Source of the DNA: a virus
Taxonomy: Duplodnaviria > Heunggongvirae > Uroviricota > Caudoviricetes
Virus record (IMG/VR): IMGVR_UViG_2541047595_000008
Location: 1-5,974 of that record
Direction: 5' to 3' (one strand)
DNA length: 5,974 bases
The first letter of the stretch is position 1. The number at the start of each line of letters is the position of its first letter. A program made the translations under genes and the position numbers. Shown one piece after another: positions 417-5,974 of this stretch. The notes beneath the pieces are model-generated. The model ran no database searches. It saw nothing but the letters and a program-made list of their open reading frames with translations, and was not told where the DNA came from.

Positions 417-1028
417 TCAACTGGCTGTAGAAAGTTGTTTTTCAGGCCAGTTGAGATCTGGTGCCGTGGTTAAATCCATCGCGTTCAGCTCGTCTATATA
501 ATCTAGCACGGAGTTAAGCTGCGTGGTTTCTGCCTGCGTCAACTTCCGTCCAGCCCGTAATTTCAACTGAATCAGACTAATGGAATCCATCGCAGTATCA
601 ATCAATGACTGACGTTTTGTTTCTGCTGCCTCTACAGCTGCACTATGTTGAGCCTCAGTATCAACCACCCATTTCTCTCCATCCCATTTGTCGTATGGTG
701 TTAGCGGGGCGATAGTGGTTGTATTTTCCGGATAGTCACCCAACACCGTGATTTCTTCGGGATTCCCAGTGTCAATGCTATAGACAGTTTCGCCACGATG
801 ATCTGGCACATACTCCCATGAACTTAAATCCTCTGAACGGAGAATCGCATAACCTGCTTTATGTGAGCCTGGAGCATCCAAACAAGAATTTGCCGGAATA
901 CCAACGCCAACAGCAAGATATTCAGTTGATGCAGAAATATATTCCCGATTACCACCATCATAGTTATAAACGATAATGTTTCCTGCCTGTATGGCTATAA
1001 GTTCGCTATTTAATATCGCATTATCCAT
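417..1028 (-). CDS. tfa: Tail-fibre assembly protein (Tfa / Mu-U-like chaperone), 203 aa
   Basis: The protein shows the Tfa pattern I recall from lambda Tfa and Mu/P1 U: GIPANS, DHRGETVY, PEN..T, KW.G..WV.DTEA and a C-terminal TAPDLNWP. Its ATG overlaps the stop of cassette A by 1 nt (TAATG on the minus strand). Confidence 0.85.
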   Translation of the reverse strand: MDNAILNSELIAIQAGNIIVYNYDGGNREYISASTEYLAVGVGIPANSCLDAPGSHKAGYAILRSEDLSSWEYVPDHRGETVYSIDTGNPEEITVLGDYPENTTTIAPLTPYDKWDGEKWVVDTEAQHSAAVEAAETKRQSLIDTAMDSISLIQLKLRAGRKLTQAETTQLNSVLDYIDELNAMDLTTAPDLNWPEKQLSTAS

Positions 1029-1486
1029 TATGCTGCTCTCACAATATAATTGAAGGCAATGTTACGTGGGCGGGTTTCATTCCCCCCAGATAACTCCGTT
1101 CTGTATTGACTGGTAAATTTACCATTAATCGCTCCTTCTTGGACGGCGTTATCTGTCGACAACAGACTATCCCCCCCTCTGTCATTTGGCACCAATACCG
1201 TGTTATCCCACGCGTCCCATGACCGAATATTATGATAATGACTTCCTGTTAACCACCCCTGTATGCTTAAGATGACCCTTCCCGCATCCACACCTCGCCC
1301 ATCATCCCAACCACGGATAAACTCACCGCGTAAATCCGGTAATTTATTGGTGGGATAAGCCTTTGCCAGATTTGGGTACTTTTCAGAAGAAAATGCTGCA
1401 CCATTGCATTTCAGCCACCCCGTTGGAGGTGTGGCTGAGGGCCACGGAACAGGTACACCAACGGGCAGCGCCGAGCCTTCTCCTAA
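1028..1486 (-). CDS. Silent tail-fibre C-terminal cassette A (no start codon; coupled to tfa)
   Basis: Manual translation shows the minus-strand frame open from site 1 down to TAA at 1028..1030: LGEGSALPVGVPVPWPSATPPTGWLKCNGAAFSSEKYPNLAKAYPTNKLPDLRGEFIRGWDDGRGVDAGRV...ETRPRNIAFNYIVRAA. The ORF track reports only 1028..1291 because the first usable start codon is an internal GTG. Confidence 0.75.
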   Translation of the reverse strand, partial: LGEGSALPVGVPVPWPSATPPTGWLKCNGAAFSSEKYPNLAKAYPTNKLPDLRGEFIRGWDDGRGVDAGRVILSIQGWLTGSHYHNIRSWDAWDNTVLVPNDRGGDSLLSTDNAVQEGAINGKFTSQYRTELSGGNETRPRNIAFNYIVRAA

Positions 1487-1503
1487 ACCAACGTTTCTAT
1501 GCC
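1478..1503 (-). repeat. Invertase crossover site 1 (hix/gix/cix-like, 26 bp)
   Basis: ttctcctaaacc-aa-cgtttctatgcc. Two imperfect inverted 12-bp half-sites flank a central AA dinucleotide. The aaacc-aa-cgttt core matches my recollection of hixL (AAACC-AA-GGTTT). It sits at the 5' boundary of cassette A. Confidence 0.7.
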
Positions 1504-1958
1504 GCTCTTACGATGTAATTAAATGCAATATTACGGGGGCGAGCTGATACATAAGCCCACCAGTCATATTTTTTGGCACCTTTACTGGATGCATCAAATA
1601 TCCACTTTTTGCCATTTATGGCCCCCCATTGATTAGAGGTTAAAGTGTCACCAAATCCGTATTGTGTTGAGCTGAGTGAACTGATATCCCCAGTATCATT
1701 ATCATCAAAACCGGAGACGATAGTGCCTTCCTGAAATGAAAGTATCTCTCGTCCTGCATCAATACCTCGTCCGTCATCCCAGCCACGGATAAATTCGCCC
1801 CGTAAATCCGGTAATTTATTGGTCGGATAAGCCTTTGCCAGCCTGGGGTACATTTCAGAAGAAAATGCTGCTCCGTTACATTTCAGCCAGCCCGTTGGTG
1901 GTGTGGCTGAGGGCCACGGAACGGGCACACCAACAGGCAGTGCAGAGCCTTCCCCCAA
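1497..1958 (-). CDS. Silent tail-fibre C-terminal cassette B
   Basis: 153-aa ORF. The apparent start is a TTG lying inside crossover site 2. It has the conserved N-block (GEGSALPVGVPVPWPSATPPTGWLKCNGAAFSSEMYP...KLPDLRGEFIRGWDDGRG), a unique middle and the invariant C-terminal RPRNIAFNYIVRAA. Confidence 0.75.
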   Translation of the reverse strand: MGEGSALPVGVPVPWPSATPPTGWLKCNGAAFSSEMYPRLAKAYPTNKLPDLRGEFIRGWDDGRGIDAGREILSFQEGTIVSGFDDNDTGDISSLSSTQYGFGDTLTSNQWGAINGKKWIFDASSKGAKKYDWWAYVSARPRNIAFNYIVRAA

Positions 1959-1975
1959 ACCAACGTTTTTATGTG
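1950..1975 (-). repeat. Invertase crossover site 2
   Basis: ttcccccaaacc-aa-cgtttttatgtg. The stop codon of cassette C (plus-strand tta at 1969..1971) is embedded in the outer half-site. Confidence 0.7.
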
Positions 1976-2472
1976 GCCCTTACAATGTAATTAAAAGCAA
2001 CGTTGCGGGGGCGCATTGATATCCATGCCCCGGTAAAATTATCCTCTGCCGTCCTTTGAGTGCCTGTTATGGAGTTATCTGATGATGCTGGAACATAATC
2101 GCTATTATCTCCTGCTTTAGGATTAGCAGGGTTTCCAACAGTTATAACAGAATCAGCAGTAGCATAAGCGATACCTACTTTGACATTAGTAGTCAGATCG
2201 ACACCGTAATAATCCTGCAAAGCTGTACGAATAAATGTTGCAGTCTGACCACTTAGCAATGAACGCCCTGTATCAATCCCTCTCGAATCATCCCAACCAC
2301 GGATAAACTCACCGCGTAAATCAGGTAATTTTAACGTTGGGTAAACCTTTGCCAGATTTGGGTACTTTTCAGAAGAAAATGCTGCTCCGTTACATTTCAG
2401 CCACCCCGTTGGTGGTGTGGCGGAGGGCCACGGAACAGGTACACCAACGGGCAGTGCCGAGCCTTCCCCTAA
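1969..2472 (-). CDS. Silent tail-fibre C-terminal cassette C
   Basis: Manual translation shows the frame open from site 3 to the stop at 1969: LGEGSALPVGVPVPWPSATPPTGWLKCNGAAFSSEKYPNLAKVYPTLKLPDLRGEFIRGWDDSRGIDTGRSLLSGQTATF...RPRNVAFNYIVRAT. The ORF track shows only 1969..2259 because no start codon lies upstream of the TTG at 2259. Confidence 0.75.
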   Translation of the reverse strand, partial: LGEGSALPVGVPVPWPSATPPTGWLKCNGAAFSSEKYPNLAKVYPTLKLPDLRGEFIRGWDDSRGIDTGRSLLSGQTATFIRTALQDYYGVDLTTNVKVGIAYATADSVITVGNPANPKAGDNSDYVPASSDNSITGTQRTAEDNFTGAWISMRPRNVAFNYIVRAT

Positions 2473-2489
2473 ACCAACGTTTTTATGCC
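2464..2489 (-). repeat. Invertase crossover site 3
   Basis: ttcccctaaacc-aa-cgtttttatgcc. Confidence 0.7.
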
Positions 2490-2986
2490 GCCCTTACGAT
2501 GTAATTAAATGCAACGTTGCGAGGGCGAGTTTCTGTACCTACATTTCCACTAATTTCACCATAACGTTTAACACTACGAGAGCTAATAGCTCGTAGTGAG
2601 GAAGGCACCTTATGACCGGGTTCGTCCGTTTTAACTATTCCCCCGTCACCGTATGTAGCTAGTATTCCTGGATTGACGCCTTCCCGTGCACTTCCTGCGG
2701 CGAGTCCGTCCCCTGTCCATAATTCCATATAGTGTGCATGGTCCAAAATTGTGTGTGGCTGCCAATTAAGCAAAGCGCGGCCAGCATCCACCCCGCGCCC
2801 ATCATCCCAACCGCGAATAAATTCTCCCCGTAAATCCGGTAATTTATTGGTGGGGTAGGCTTTTGCCAGTTTGGGATACATTTCAGAAGAAAATGCTGCA
2901 CCATTGCATTTCAGCCAGCCCGTTGGTGGTGTTTCTAAGGGCCACGGAACGGGCACGCCAACGGGCAGTGCAGAGCCTTCCCCCAA
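2483..2986 (-). CDS. Silent tail-fibre C-terminal cassette D
   Basis: 167-aa ORF with the conserved N-block (variant WPLETPP), a unique middle and the C-terminal ETRPRNVAFNYIVRAA. Its apparent TTG start lies in site 4. Confidence 0.75.
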   Translation of the reverse strand: MGEGSALPVGVPVPWPLETPPTGWLKCNGAAFSSEMYPKLAKAYPTNKLPDLRGEFIRGWDDGRGVDAGRALLNWQPHTILDHAHYMELWTGDGLAAGSAREGVNPGILATYGDGGIVKTDEPGHKVPSSLRAISSRSVKRYGEISGNVGTETRPRNVAFNYIVRAA

Positions 2987-3003
2987 ACCAACGTTTCTAT
3001 GCC
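2978..3003 (-). repeat. Invertase crossover site 4
   Basis: ttcccccaaacc-aa-cgtttctatgcc. Confidence 0.7.
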
Positions 3004-3428
3004 GCTCTTACGATGTAATTAAATGCAATATTACGAGGGCGAGATTCTCTCCCCCCCACCGAGTTAGTGCTATCCGATCTCTGTTGAATTACTGAGCCAG
3101 AAACATCAGCGGCTAAAAGATAATATCCACCTGTTGTATCAAATCCAGTTTGTGCCCATGTTCTTTCGAAATAATGACTATGTGATTTAAATTCATCTGT
3201 TTGAGTTGATAATAACGCGCGCCCACTATCCACTCCACGCCCATCATCCCAACCACGGATAAACTCACCGCGTAAATCCGGCAATTTATTGGTGGGGTAA
3301 GCCCTTGCCAGATTTGGGTACATTTCAGAAGAAAATGCTGCGCCGTTACATTTCAGCCACCCTGCTGGCGGTGTGGCTGAGGGCCACGGAACAGGCACAC
3401 CAACGGGCAGCGCAGAGCCTTCCCCCAA
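2997..3428 (-). CDS. Silent tail-fibre C-terminal cassette E
   Basis: 143-aa ORF with the conserved N-block (variant PPAGW), a unique middle and the C-terminal SRPRNIAFNYIVRAA. Confidence 0.75.
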   Translation of the reverse strand: MGEGSALPVGVPVPWPSATPPAGWLKCNGAAFSSEMYPNLARAYPTNKLPDLRGEFIRGWDDGRGVDSGRALLSTQTDEFKSHSHYFERTWAQTGFDTTGGYYLLAADVSGSVIQQRSDSTNSVGGRESRPRNIAFNYIVRAA

Positions 3429-3445
3429 ACCAACGTTTTTATGCC
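3420..3445 (-). repeat. Invertase crossover site 5
   Basis: ttcccccaaacc-aa-cgtttttatgcc. Confidence 0.7.
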
Positions 3446-3915
3446 GCCCTTACGATGTAATTAAATGCGATATTTCGTGGACGGGTTTCACTCCCGCCAG
3501 TATTACCAATACTCCCTCGAGAATGAAGTGTCGGTGATGGAATCAAATTCCCTCCTGTATTTGAGGCATCAAGCCCCCGTCCTTGTGTGTATGTTTTTTT
3601 GAAAATTGTCGCCAGCTCCCATTCATCTTTTGTGTCGTAACCATCATTGGCTACAACAATATGTCGGTGCTTTTCCAGCATTCCTGTCTGAATGCTCAAT
3701 AAAGCACGTCCCGCATCCACCCCGCGCCCATCATCCCAGCCGCGAATAAATTCTCCCCGTAAATCCGGTAATTTATTGGTGGGATAAGCCTTTGCCAGCC
3801 TGGGGTACATTTCAGAAGAAAATGCTGCTCCGTTGCATTTTAGCCAGCCTGTTGGCGGAGTGGCTGAGGGCCACGGAACAGGTACGCCAACAGGCAATGC
3901 AGAGCCTTCCCCCAA
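3439..3915 (-). CDS. Silent tail-fibre C-terminal cassette F
   Basis: 158-aa ORF with the conserved N-block, a unique middle and the C-terminal ETRPRNIAFNYIVRAA. Confidence 0.75.
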   Translation of the reverse strand: MGEGSALPVGVPVPWPSATPPTGWLKCNGAAFSSEMYPRLAKAYPTNKLPDLRGEFIRGWDDGRGVDAGRALLSIQTGMLEKHRHIVVANDGYDTKDEWELATIFKKTYTQGRGLDASNTGGNLIPSPTLHSRGSIGNTGGSETRPRNIAFNYIVRAA

Positions 3916-3932
3916 ACCAACGTTTTTATGCC
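3907..3932 (-). repeat. Invertase crossover site 6
   Basis: ttcccccaaacc-aa-cgtttttatgcc, identical to sites 5 and 7. Confidence 0.7.
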
Positions 3933-4393
3933 GCCCTTACGATATAATTAAACGCAATATTACGGGGGCGGGTTTCAGATGCTGTACGAACTGAGCGAGA
4001 GGCGTCGAATGTCCAGTTATAAGCGCCATAACCCTCAATAATTTCCGTTTCCTTTAGGCCTGTAGATAATACTTGACCATGTTGACTAAATGGCCCTGAA
4101 CTAAGTACATCTCTAAAAAGCTGAGTACGCCCGAAAGAACCAACAATATTCTGAATTGCATCATTCTGTGCAGATAATAAATTACGGCCAGAGTCAATCC
4201 CCCGCCCGTCATCCCAGCCGCGAATAAATTCGCCCCGTAGATCCGGCAATTTATTAGTGGGGTAAACCTTTGCCAGATTTGGGTACTTTTCAGAAGAAAA
4301 TGCTGCTCCGTTACATTTCAGCCACCCCGTTGGTGGTGTGGCGGAGGGCCATGGAACAGGTACACCAACGGGCAGTGCCGAGCCTTCCCCCAA
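3926..4393 (-). CDS. Silent tail-fibre C-terminal cassette G
   Basis: 155-aa ORF with the conserved N-block, a unique middle and the C-terminal ETRPRNIAFNYIVRAA. Confidence 0.75.
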   Translation of the reverse strand: MGEGSALPVGVPVPWPSATPPTGWLKCNGAAFSSEKYPNLAKVYPTNKLPDLRGEFIRGWDDGRGIDSGRNLLSAQNDAIQNIVGSFGRTQLFRDVLSSGPFSQHGQVLSTGLKETEIIEGYGAYNWTFDASRSVRTASETRPRNIAFNYIVRAA

Positions 4394-4410
4394 ACCAACG
4401 TTTTTATGCC
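4385..4410 (-). repeat. Invertase crossover site 7
   Basis: ttcccccaaacc-aa-cgtttttatgcc. Confidence 0.7.
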
Positions 4411-4832
4411 GCCCTTACGATGTAATTAAATGCGATATTTCGCGGCCTGACAGCAACAAAATTTATACCATCACCTACAGAGTTACTGGTGAAATTAAAT
4501 CGTGAAAATCCTGGCTGATTTCCGACGATGCCATCATGAAAATTAATTGCGTGCCCCGCACCATCGCCTATATTTCCGGCACGCTGAGAAAAGTTTGTAG
4601 CCTCTTGGCTGCTTAATAATGCTCGCCCATTGTCCACACCTCGTCCATCATCCCAACCTCGAATAAATTCGCCCCGTAGATCCGGCAATTTATTGGTGGG
4701 GTAAACCTTTGCCAGATTTGGGTACTTTTCAGAAGAAAATGCTGCTCCGTTACATTTCAGCCACCCCGTTGGTGGTGTGGCGGAGGGCCATGGAACAGGT
4801 ACACCAACGGGCAGCGCCGAGCCTTCCCCTAA
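4404..4832 (-). CDS. Silent tail-fibre C-terminal cassette H (outermost, next to the invertase)
   Basis: Manual translation from site 8 is open: LGEGSALPVGVPVPWPSATPPTGWLKCNGA... continuing in the same frame into ORF 4404..4688 (LPDLRGEFIRGWDDGRGVDNGR...VRPRNIAFNYIVRAA). The ORF track is shorter because the first start-capable codon is the TTG at 4686..4688. Confidence 0.7.
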   Translation of the reverse strand, partial: LGEGSALPVGVPVPWPSATPPTGWLKCNGAAFSSEKYPNLAKVYPTNKLPDLRGEFIRGWDDGRGVDNGRALLSSQEATNFSQRAGNIGDGAGHAINFHDGIVGNQPGFSRFNFTSNSVGDGINFVAVRPRNIAFNYIVRAA

Positions 4833-4849
4833 ACCAACGTTTTAGTCTT
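4824..4849 (-). repeat. Invertase crossover site 8 (array boundary site)
   Basis: ttcccctaaacc-aa-cgttttagtctt. The inner half-site and core match the other seven. The outer half-site diverges, with no preceding cassette and no embedded stop codon, as expected for the edge of the invertible region. Confidence 0.65.
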
Positions 4850-4886
4850 AATCCCTACCTATACCAACGATGTATTTTTAACTAAA

Positions 4887-4893
4887 CAAAGAG
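4887..4893 (+). promoter_or_regulatory. Ribosome-binding site of the invertase gene
   Basis: aaagagg lies 10 nt upstream of the ATG at 4904. Confidence 0.5.
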
Positions 4894-4903
4894 GTTGTTT
4901 TTC

Positions 4904-5476
4904 ATGCAAATTGGCTACATTCGTGTGTCAACAAATGACCAAAACACAGATTTACAAAGAAATGCACTGAACTGCGCAGGATGTGAACTGATTTTTGAAG
5001 ATAAAATAAGCGGAACAAAGTCAGCCAGACCAGGCTTGAAAAAGCTGCTCAGAACGTTATCAGAAGGAGATACGCTGGTTGTCTGGAAGCTGGATAGGCT
5101 TGGCAGAAGTATGAAACACCTTATCACGCTTATAGAGGAGTTGCGGGAAAAAGGTGTTAATTTCCGTAGTCTGACAGACAGTATTGACACATCAACACCC
5201 ATGGGGCGTTTCTTTTTTCATGTCATGGGTGCTTTAGCAGAAATGGAACGTGAATTAATTGTTGAGAGAACACTGGCCGGACTGGCAGCTGCACGCGAAC
5301 AGGGACGCATTGGCGGACGTCGCCCGAAGTTGACAAAAGAACAACATGAGCAAATAGCGAGGTTGATCGAAAATGGCTACAGCAGGAAACAGTTGGCAAT
5401 TATTTACGATATCGGTGTATCGACGATTTATCGTTATCATCCTGTAGAGAAGCGCCAAACTCAATCTGAGCTGTAA
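4904..5476 (+). CDS. Serine DNA invertase of the Gin/Cin/Hin/Pin/Min family (190 aa)
   Basis: MQIGYIRVSTNDQNTDLQRNAL...TLVVWKLDRLGRSMKHL...SLTDSIDTS.PMGRFFFHVMGALAEMERELI.ERT.AGLAAAR..GRIGGR is close to colinear with Gin and Cin as I recall them. The catalytic Ser is at position 9 and there is a C-terminal HTH (GVSTIYRY). The true start is the ATG at 4904; the ORF-track start is an upstream TTG at 4895. Stop is TAA at 5474..5476. Confidence 0.95.
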   Translation: MQIGYIRVSTNDQNTDLQRNALNCAGCELIFEDKISGTKSARPGLKKLLRTLSEGDTLVVWKLDRLGRSMKHLITLIEELREKGVNFRSLTDSIDTSTPMGRFFFHVMGALAEMERELIVERTLAGLAAAREQGRIGGRRPKLTKEQHEQIARLIENGYSRKQLAIIYDIGVSTIYRYHPVEKRQTQSEL

Positions 5477-5596
5477 TTCTAATGCCGCGTCGGTGTAATT
5501 TATCATGATAGAATAGGTACATTTATCGCGCGGCACATCAATTCGATGTATCTAGCGCCTGCTGACCGCTAATGAAAACTGTTCTCGAAATGTTGT

Positions 5597-5615
5597 CCCT
5601 AGTCCGAGACTAGGG
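5597..5615. other. Perfect 8-bp inverted repeat with a 3-nt loop (ccctagtc-cga-gactaggg)
   Basis: Seen directly in the sequence. No T-tract follows, so it is not a classical intrinsic terminator. It could be a protein-binding palindrome or an RNA hairpin. Confidence 0.25.
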
Positions 5616-5884
5616 TATCACCTCTGGAAAGCATACGCAGAACCTTTTTTAACCCAGGGTGCCCAGCCTTTTTGCTGCTCGCCTTATTCGCAAAAATTAG
5701 CTCACATCCTGCGCTTTCAAGTGCTTTTCACTGCATAGCTGTGTTTTGTTCATTTGTCTATATGCGTACATAGCCTATTAGCATATTTTTTGCCCACTAT
5801 CGTTATTTATTGCAAGCCACAGGTTTTAATTAACAAAACCAGTGTGTGTGGAAATCACAAAGTGCATACCGTTCTCAAATGTTG

Positions 5885-5974
5885 GGCTTTGTTGAATAAA
5901 TCGAACTTTTGCTGAGTTGAAGGATCAGATCACGCATCTTCCCGACAACGCAGACCGTTCCGTGGCAAAGCAAA
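5885..5974. mobile_element. Terminus of an IS903-group (IS5-family) insertion sequence; element continues beyond the window
   Basis: ggctttgttgaataaatc at 5885..5902 matches my recollection of the 18-bp IS903 terminal inverted repeat. The following ~70 bp (gaacttttgctgagttgaaggatcagatcacgcatcttcccgacaacgcagaccgttccgtggcaaagcaaa) matches the IS903 remnant I remember flanking the Tn903 kanamycin cassette in common vectors. This is from memory, not from a search. Confidence 0.6.

Follow-up and report, generated by a model that had tools for sequence, protein, structure and literature searches.

The 5,974-nucleotide stretch of DNA analysed here (the window) comes from a P1/p15B-like plasmid prophage and carries a serine DNA invertase gene together with an array of crossover sites. 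Within the 5′ coding region of this gene we identified homology to the annotated recombinational enhancer of P1 cin, and purifying constraint at the nucleotide level falls exactly on the two predicted Fis cores of this region. Based on these comparisons, the gene very probably encodes a Min-type invertase that depends on Fis and on an enhancer located in its own codons 7–30, at positions 4922–4993. Neither the gene nor its arrangement is new: an enhancer within the invertase gene is the textbook layout of the Hin, Gin and Cin systems, and the feature has little weight as a discovery. The base-level coordinates of the cores are nevertheless of practical use, as these are the positions to preserve when the gene is recoded or moved, for example in the engineering of P1-like phage-plasmids or of inversion switches.

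Invertase gene and genomic setting

4904–5476, plus strand: serine DNA invertase gene, read as Min-type, 190 aa; transcription directed away from the cassette array

The open reading frame of the invertase ends at 5476 and its ATG at 4904 agrees with the start in all homologues; a GAGG motif occupies 4891–4894, nine bases 5′ of this ATG. The encoded protein is composed of a Resolvase domain (PF00239, E 2.1e-51) and an HTH_7 domain (PF02796, E 3.4e-15), features the motif YIRVSTNDQ and the catalytic Ser9, and shares 72% identity with Mu Gin and 74% with both P1 and P7 Cin. These domains and identities bear out the original prediction, which had described the product as a Din-family serine invertase. 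In a search of the PDB, Gin crystal chains were matched with an E value of 4e-92, versus 3e-31 for gamma-delta resolvase.

We read this invertase as the Min protein of p15B-type plasmids, because its sequence exactly matches the UniRef entry Q05517_ECOLX (“DNA-invertase”) and because nt 25–95 of its CDS are 83% identical to P1 cin (59/71, gap-free), which equals the value that the P1 GenBank record gives for p15B nt 6463..6533. Its probable identity with Min, the invertase of the multiple-inversion system of plasmid p15B (E. coli 15T−), is drawn from this UniRef entry and from the p15B notes in the P1 record.

The marks of Fis/enhancer-dependent invertases are residues Gln151, Arg154 and Leu155 of Hin, localised to helix 1 of the DNA-binding domain, and the basic residues 47, 48 and 51 in helix B (PMC3798978). 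In the invertase alignment, Q150, R153, L154 and K46 are invariant, and positions 47 and 50 are occupied by lysine or arginine. At the positions equivalent to Hin His107 and Gin Met114, the window invertase has the wild-type residues; the H107Y substitution renders Hin Fis-independent. The Gin crystal chains carry a valine at the Met114 position, which we take to be likewise an activating change.

Positions 4850–5884 match E. coli IncY plasmids, for example CP088422.1, with 100% identity; beyond the matching part, these continue with P1-type holin and lysis genes and darA. Positions 5885–5974 represent one end of IS903, with 100% identity to the copy of this element that is annotated in phage P7. 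This element is absent here from the closest plasmids, in which the match ends at 5884 and the sequence runs on into lydC. The exact arrangement of the window in one piece found no match among plasmid or E. coli genome records, and a promoter and terminator scan of 4780–5974 returned nothing exceeding chance.

Position of the predicted enhancer and its Fis cores

The Cin enhancer is annotated at cin nt 19–90 in the P1 record (72 bp; locus L001, 3088..3159) and at nt 19–86 in the P7 record. The window gene, cin and gin align gap-free in one register, and the equivalent of the enhancer is therefore found at 4922–4993. This element contains two predicted Fis cores, as follows:

4922–4993: predicted recombinational enhancer, by homology to the annotated 72-bp enhancer of P1 cin; CDS nt 19–90, codons 7–30
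4926–4940, centre 4933: predicted proximal Fis core TGTCAACAAATGACC, matching 7 of 7 specified positions of KNNYRNNWNNYRNNM
4974–4988, centre 4981: predicted distal Fis core GCGCAGGATGTGAAC, matching 7 of 7 specified positions of KNNYRNNWNNYRNNM

The sequence KNNYRNNWNNYRNNM is the classical 15-bp Fis consensus, reportedly from Hübner and Arber, and both cores agree with it at all seven specified positions not only in the window gene but also in Mu gin, P1 cin and P7 cin. The core centres are 48 bp apart, the pair spans 63 bp, and 96 bp separate the proximal centre from that of the nearest crossover site. The Y-R steps at ±3–4 and the G/C ends of the Fis site have been confirmed (PMC4784862). 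Position −7 of the proximal core is a T, not a G. The central 5 bp of the distal core read GGATG and thus include G/C pairs, which at this place are reported to weaken Fis binding (PMC3711457); gin and cin, however, have this core as well.

Across the window, the degenerate Fis consensus matched 47 times versus 49.9 matches expected, which is chance level. The sole pair of consensus matches with 48-bp spacing is the one at 4926–4940 and 4974–4988, and 0.4 such pairs are expected per window by chance. Because both the single matches and the spaced pair are near chance expectation, the case for the enhancer rests on homology and conservation. The original prediction had located a recombinational enhancer within the 5′ coding region of the invertase gene, and this location is strongly supported by the homology to the annotated P1 cin enhancer and by the nucleotide-level constraint in 74 homologues described below. 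Fis binding, enhancer activity and Fis dependence are what we infer for the window locus from these sequence comparisons.

A second enhancer-like copy in a truncated cin pseudogene

A further stretch with homology to the cin enhancer was identified downstream of the invertase gene:

5608–5784, minus strand: cin pseudogene, truncated to the first 177 nt of the gene and interrupted by a TAG at codon 9
5748–5762: proximal Fis-like core of the pseudogene TATAGACAAATGAAC, 6 of 7 consensus positions; two substitutions, at positions −4 and −3
5700–5714: distal Fis-like core of the pseudogene GCGCAGGATGTGAGC, 7 of 7 consensus positions, intact

The pseudogene, together with P1-cin promoter-like DNA extending to 5873, is 89% identical to P1 31570–31836, a segment comprising the cin promoter, the 5′ end of the gene and the annotated enhancer. 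Papers on p15B are said to describe this cin relic already. The pseudogene is oriented towards the working invertase gene and faces its 3′ end.

Given its sequence, this enhancer copy could bind Fis and act in cis, and we considered whether it (5700–5762) is the working enhancer of the array, or is redundant with the in-gene element. At the correct spacing of 48 bp, the core pair matches the consensus at 13 of 14 positions, within a segment whose P1 counterpart carries the annotated enhancer; it is located in cis, with the closest crossover site ∼0.9 kb away, and enhancers are able to act over a distance. The relic is also kept in 10 of 11 related loci, where it is found at +704 from the ATG, although such retention is uninformative on selection because these loci are nearly identical. 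Against this, the pseudogene that hosts the copy is decaying, with its stop at codon 9 and its proximal core substituted at −4 and −3, whereas the in-gene copy is both intact and measurably constrained. We therefore regard this explanation as unlikely and retain the in-gene element at 4922–4993 as the predicted enhancer of the array.

A variant in which two cis enhancers serve the array, namely the constrained in-gene copy and the slightly decayed pseudogene copy ∼0.8 kb downstream, appears quite unlikely as well. Were it true, the two enhancers could bias the choice of silent cassette, given at least nine sites distributed over more than 3.4 kb, and the array of eight cassettes with a single assembly gene would represent an expanded Min variant with its own rules of site choice.

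Nucleotide-level constraint on the two cores

The comparison set was composed of 74 distinct, codon-aligned homologous invertase genes of 58–97% nucleotide identity, derived from 80 genome loci and P1; hin was not among the 80 invertase loci returned by the scan of the genome collection. The Fis consensus is kept at nt 23–37 in 72 of the 74 genes and at nt 71–85 in 70, with both cores kept together in 70/74. The next best single consensus offset within the first 405 nt is found in 36 of 74 sequences, and no other pair of offsets occurs in more than one. Third codon positions within the proximal core are 88–97% conserved.

Constraint was expressed as the synonymous excess, defined as synonymous-codon identity minus the per-amino-acid expectation within the same genes. 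This excess reaches +0.31 in codons 8–12 and 24–28, which correspond to the two cores, versus −0.03 in the spacer between them (codons 13–23) and −0.025 in the remaining gene. The difference gave a Mann–Whitney p of 2.9e-5, and a thinned set of 28 sequences below 78% identity gave 1.3e-5, both p-values being approximate because the compared sequences share descent. When two blocks of five codons, 16 codons apart, were placed at each of 113 possible positions, the best two placements began at codons 9 and 8.

The distal core also keeps its Fis nucleotide classes where the protein varies. Codon 24 is variable (TGC, TGT, CGC or AGC, encoding Cys, Arg or Ser), but core position −7, which falls in it, is a G in 72 of 74 genes. 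Codon 26 likewise varies between Gly, Asn and Asp, but the centre of the distal core (nt 78) is an A or T in 73/74. These two patterns point to selection on the DNA and not on the protein. As an internal control for the scan we used other conserved peptide motifs of these genes, and those at codons 56–69 and 88–105 were without synonymous excess. Across invertase genes, synonymous sites provide a direct readout of the constraint on Fis sites.

Synonymous conservation could in principle also arise if the mRNA, the initiation of translation or the choice of codons around the catalytic serine were under constraint. The proximal cluster (codons 8–12) is indeed close to the 5′ end of the gene and spans Ser9, and some synonymous excess is also present at codons 1–6. 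A constraint of this kind, however, does not account for a second cluster exactly 16 codons (48 bp) downstream across an unconstrained spacer, for the nucleotide classes kept despite amino acid change at codons 24 and 26, or for the control peptides that are conserved without synonymous excess. Moreover, the predicted RNA fold of 4880–5010 is not stabler than that of shuffled sequences (z 0.17), and this segment has no Rfam match. We consider this explanation highly improbable, and a DNA enhancer containing the two cores remains the preferred reading.

The downstream A/T-rich stretch

The original prediction had placed the enhancer at 4950..5080 (nt 47–177), had quoted an A/T-rich string from this interval and had proposed alignment to known enhancers. 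Such alignment returned gin and cin cores nearly the same as those of the window and in one register, and it puts the element at 4922–4993 (nt 19–90), about 30–90 bases upstream of where it had been placed. The sequences concerned are the following:

4985–5011: quoted A/T-rich string gaactgatttttgaagataaaataagc; overlaps the distal core by 4 bases and is otherwise downstream of it
4997–5011: Fis-like 15-mer GAAGATAAAATAAGC, 6 of 7 consensus positions

An enhancer at 4950–5080 with 4985–5011 as its Fis site has very little probability: the distal core (4974–4988) does fall inside the interval, and GAAGATAAAATAAGC has a G at −7, a C at +7 and an A/T-rich centre, with the similar GAAGATAAATTAAGC in Mu gin, but the annotated P1 enhancer stops at nt 90, equivalent to window position 4993, and the interval holds, apart from the distal core, only about half of the spacer, with the proximal core outside. 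The quoted string itself lies almost wholly 3′ of the distal core and is without synonymous constraint, the excess being −0.02 to +0.14 in codons 31–36 and at or below 0 in later windows. Its A/T richness is accounted for by the conserved peptide Glu-Asp-Lys-Ile-Ser, and the counterpart of GAAGATAAAATAAGC in P1 cin, GAGGACAAGGCGAGC, is G/C-rich. The consensus scan found no full Fis match between 4989 and 5168, and with 59% A/T versus 56% in the whole gene, the interval 4950..5080 is not richer. Judged by its sequence, GAAGATAAAATAAGC may be at most an accessory or fortuitous site.

Crossover sites and cassette array

The DNA 5′ of the invertase gene is composed of an array of tail-fibre C-terminal cassettes, which contain the Collar domain, and one tail-fibre assembly gene. 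We identified eight copies of the crossover-site motif AAACCAACGTTT in the window, at 1485, 1957, 2471, 2985, 3427, 3914, 4392 and 4831, where 0.02 are expected by chance. The sites have the form TTCCCCNAAACC AA CGTTT..., a 26-bp sequence with imperfect inverted 12-bp halves around an asymmetric 2-bp core, and they resemble cixL and Mu gixR, TTCCTGTAAACC GA GGTTTTGGATAA. Based on the asymmetric AA core, all eight (1485–4842) are co-oriented.

4824–4849, plus strand: invertase-proximal 26-bp crossover site TTCCCCTAAACC AA CGTTTTAGTCTT; core 4836/4837, 67 bp before the ATG
1478–4410, plus strand: seven further crossover sites, cores 1490, 1962, 2476, 2990, 3432, 3919 and 4397; co-oriented with the site at 4836

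Each of the seven further sites marks the head of a silent minus-strand cassette that encodes a tail-fibre C-terminus. Within 1478–4410, the TAA stop of each silent cassette falls inside the right half-site of the adjoining crossover site (GGCATAAAAACG, minus strand), so that cassette ends and recombination sites overlap, without a spacer. A single tail-fibre assembly gene (417–1028, minus strand, within 1–1028) is present for the eight silent minus-strand cassettes, and the plus-strand cassette at 1–411 is without a co-oriented assembly gene in the present isomer. The left edge of the window cuts this plus-strand cassette, and its site, the expected inverted partner, must lie to the left of the window.

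The original prediction had counted the common orientation of the array sites among the factors that impose inversion. The orientation itself was correctly described, with eight of eight sites in the window agreeing; however, a single orientation is no help in imposing inversion, since no inversion is possible between directly repeated sites.

We compared the array with 11 related loci that carry an identical invertase. A crossover site is found at −73 in all of them, always in the same orientation, and most contain an oppositely oriented constant-part site (TACC TT GGTTTAGGGGAAGG). They have one to seven array-oriented sites and zero to two inverted array-type sites, compared with eight array-oriented sites in the window, and all but one of the 11 have an identical enhancer stretch. 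Among related plasmids with the identical invertase, the assembly gene and cassettes are found in either orientation; inversion therefore occurs in nature, and these plasmids represent natural isomers. The number of cassettes, which ranges from 1 to 8 among plasmids, more likely reflects homologous recombination between the ∼200-bp conserved cassette heads.

In CP088422.1 (locus L002, 1507–3630), a long tail-fibre ORF stops soon after its crossover site (...PVGVPCSMALSHTTNGVAEM*) and does not enter a cassette, a sign that this isomer may have a frameshift or an unproductive junction.

Proposed mechanism of inversion

Based on the organisation of the locus, we hypothesised that two Fis dimers would bind the cores at 4926–4940 and 4974–4988. 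Invertase dimers occupying two 26-bp sites of opposite orientation would meet the Fis-bound enhancer on supercoiled DNA and would be remodelled into an active tetramer, with strand exchange proceeding by one 180-degree rotation. The inversion would swap the tail-fibre C-terminal cassette joined to the constant part of the fibre gene, and each silent cassette could be fused to this constant part through inversion with an oppositely oriented site.

In the Hin and Gin systems, invertase dimers and the Fis-bound enhancer assemble at a branch of supercoiled DNA, where the dimers form an active tetramer that exchanges strands by one rotation; a ligatable product arises only from inverted sites, and the Fis/enhancer invertasome confines recombination to inverted pairs. 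An enhancer-dependent topological filter of this type would stop the eight co-oriented silent sites from recombining among themselves. Exchange would be open to each of them only with sites of opposite orientation to the left of the window, and related plasmids do have such sites. These sites would be protected from site-specific deletion because the invertasome limits recombination to inverted pairs, and the filter would in this way account for the stability of the eight-site tandem array.

Comparison with known inversion systems

In its organisation, the window resembles p15B Min. As in p15B, the invertase gene of the window runs opposite to P1 cin, and beyond it come a truncated cin relic, at the cin position next to lydC, and the genes lydC/lydA; the P1 record gives a homology of 89% for p15B 7147..7408, the same value as that of the window versus P1 over the cin relic. 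The two systems also share more than two crossover sites within tail-fibre coding cassettes and overlapping invertible segments. p15B reportedly has six crossover sites in 3.5 kb, whereas the window has eight co-oriented sites in 3.4 kb with at least one more outside, and IS903 from 5885.

Mu Gin, 72% identical at the protein level, is likewise transcribed away from the invertible DNA. The spacing between gixR and gin is that of the window, the site core being 67 bp from the ATG and 96 bp from the proximal Fis centre, and the Mu gin Fis cores TATCAACAAATGACC and GTGCAGGATGTGAAC are nearly identical to those of the window. In contrast, Mu has two sites and one invertible segment with two sets of cassette plus assembly gene, whereas the window belongs to an array of at least nine sites with a single assembly gene.

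With P1 and P7 Cin, in addition to the 74% protein identity, the window shares the register of the enhancer and the phage-plasmid backbone. P1, however, has two sites, and its cin gene is directed toward the C segment, with cixL at the cin 3′ end. This arrangement leaves the cin enhancer ∼0.5 kb from the nearest site, whereas in the window, where the gene is reversed relative to cin, the distance is 96 bp.

The Hin enhancer of Salmonella is 65 bp long, has a Fis site at each end and lies ∼100 bp from one recombination site. The window cores are similar in span (63 bp) and in distance from a site (96 bp), and the Fis-contact residues and basic residues of helix B are conserved. Between its cores the Hin enhancer has the A/T segment ATTTA, and the window has GATTTAC at 4949–4955. 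The hin cores TGTCAACAATTGACC and GTGCAAATTGTGACC are presumably located at the same codons as the window cores. The two systems differ in outcome, as Hin flips a promoter and the window system swaps gene ends.

Distribution of the invertase gene

The identical 190-aa invertase gene was found in ∼15,000 blocks of the searched sequence collection, where one block may hold several contigs. Some of these identical copies are located in chromosomal contigs or beside P2-like tail genes (locus L092). Invertase genes of the enterobacterial type were also present in a short contig labelled Moraxella osloensis (L004, 1268 bp; 84% identity) and in a Chitinophaga MAG (L046; 75%), both of which are likely to represent contamination or mis-binning.
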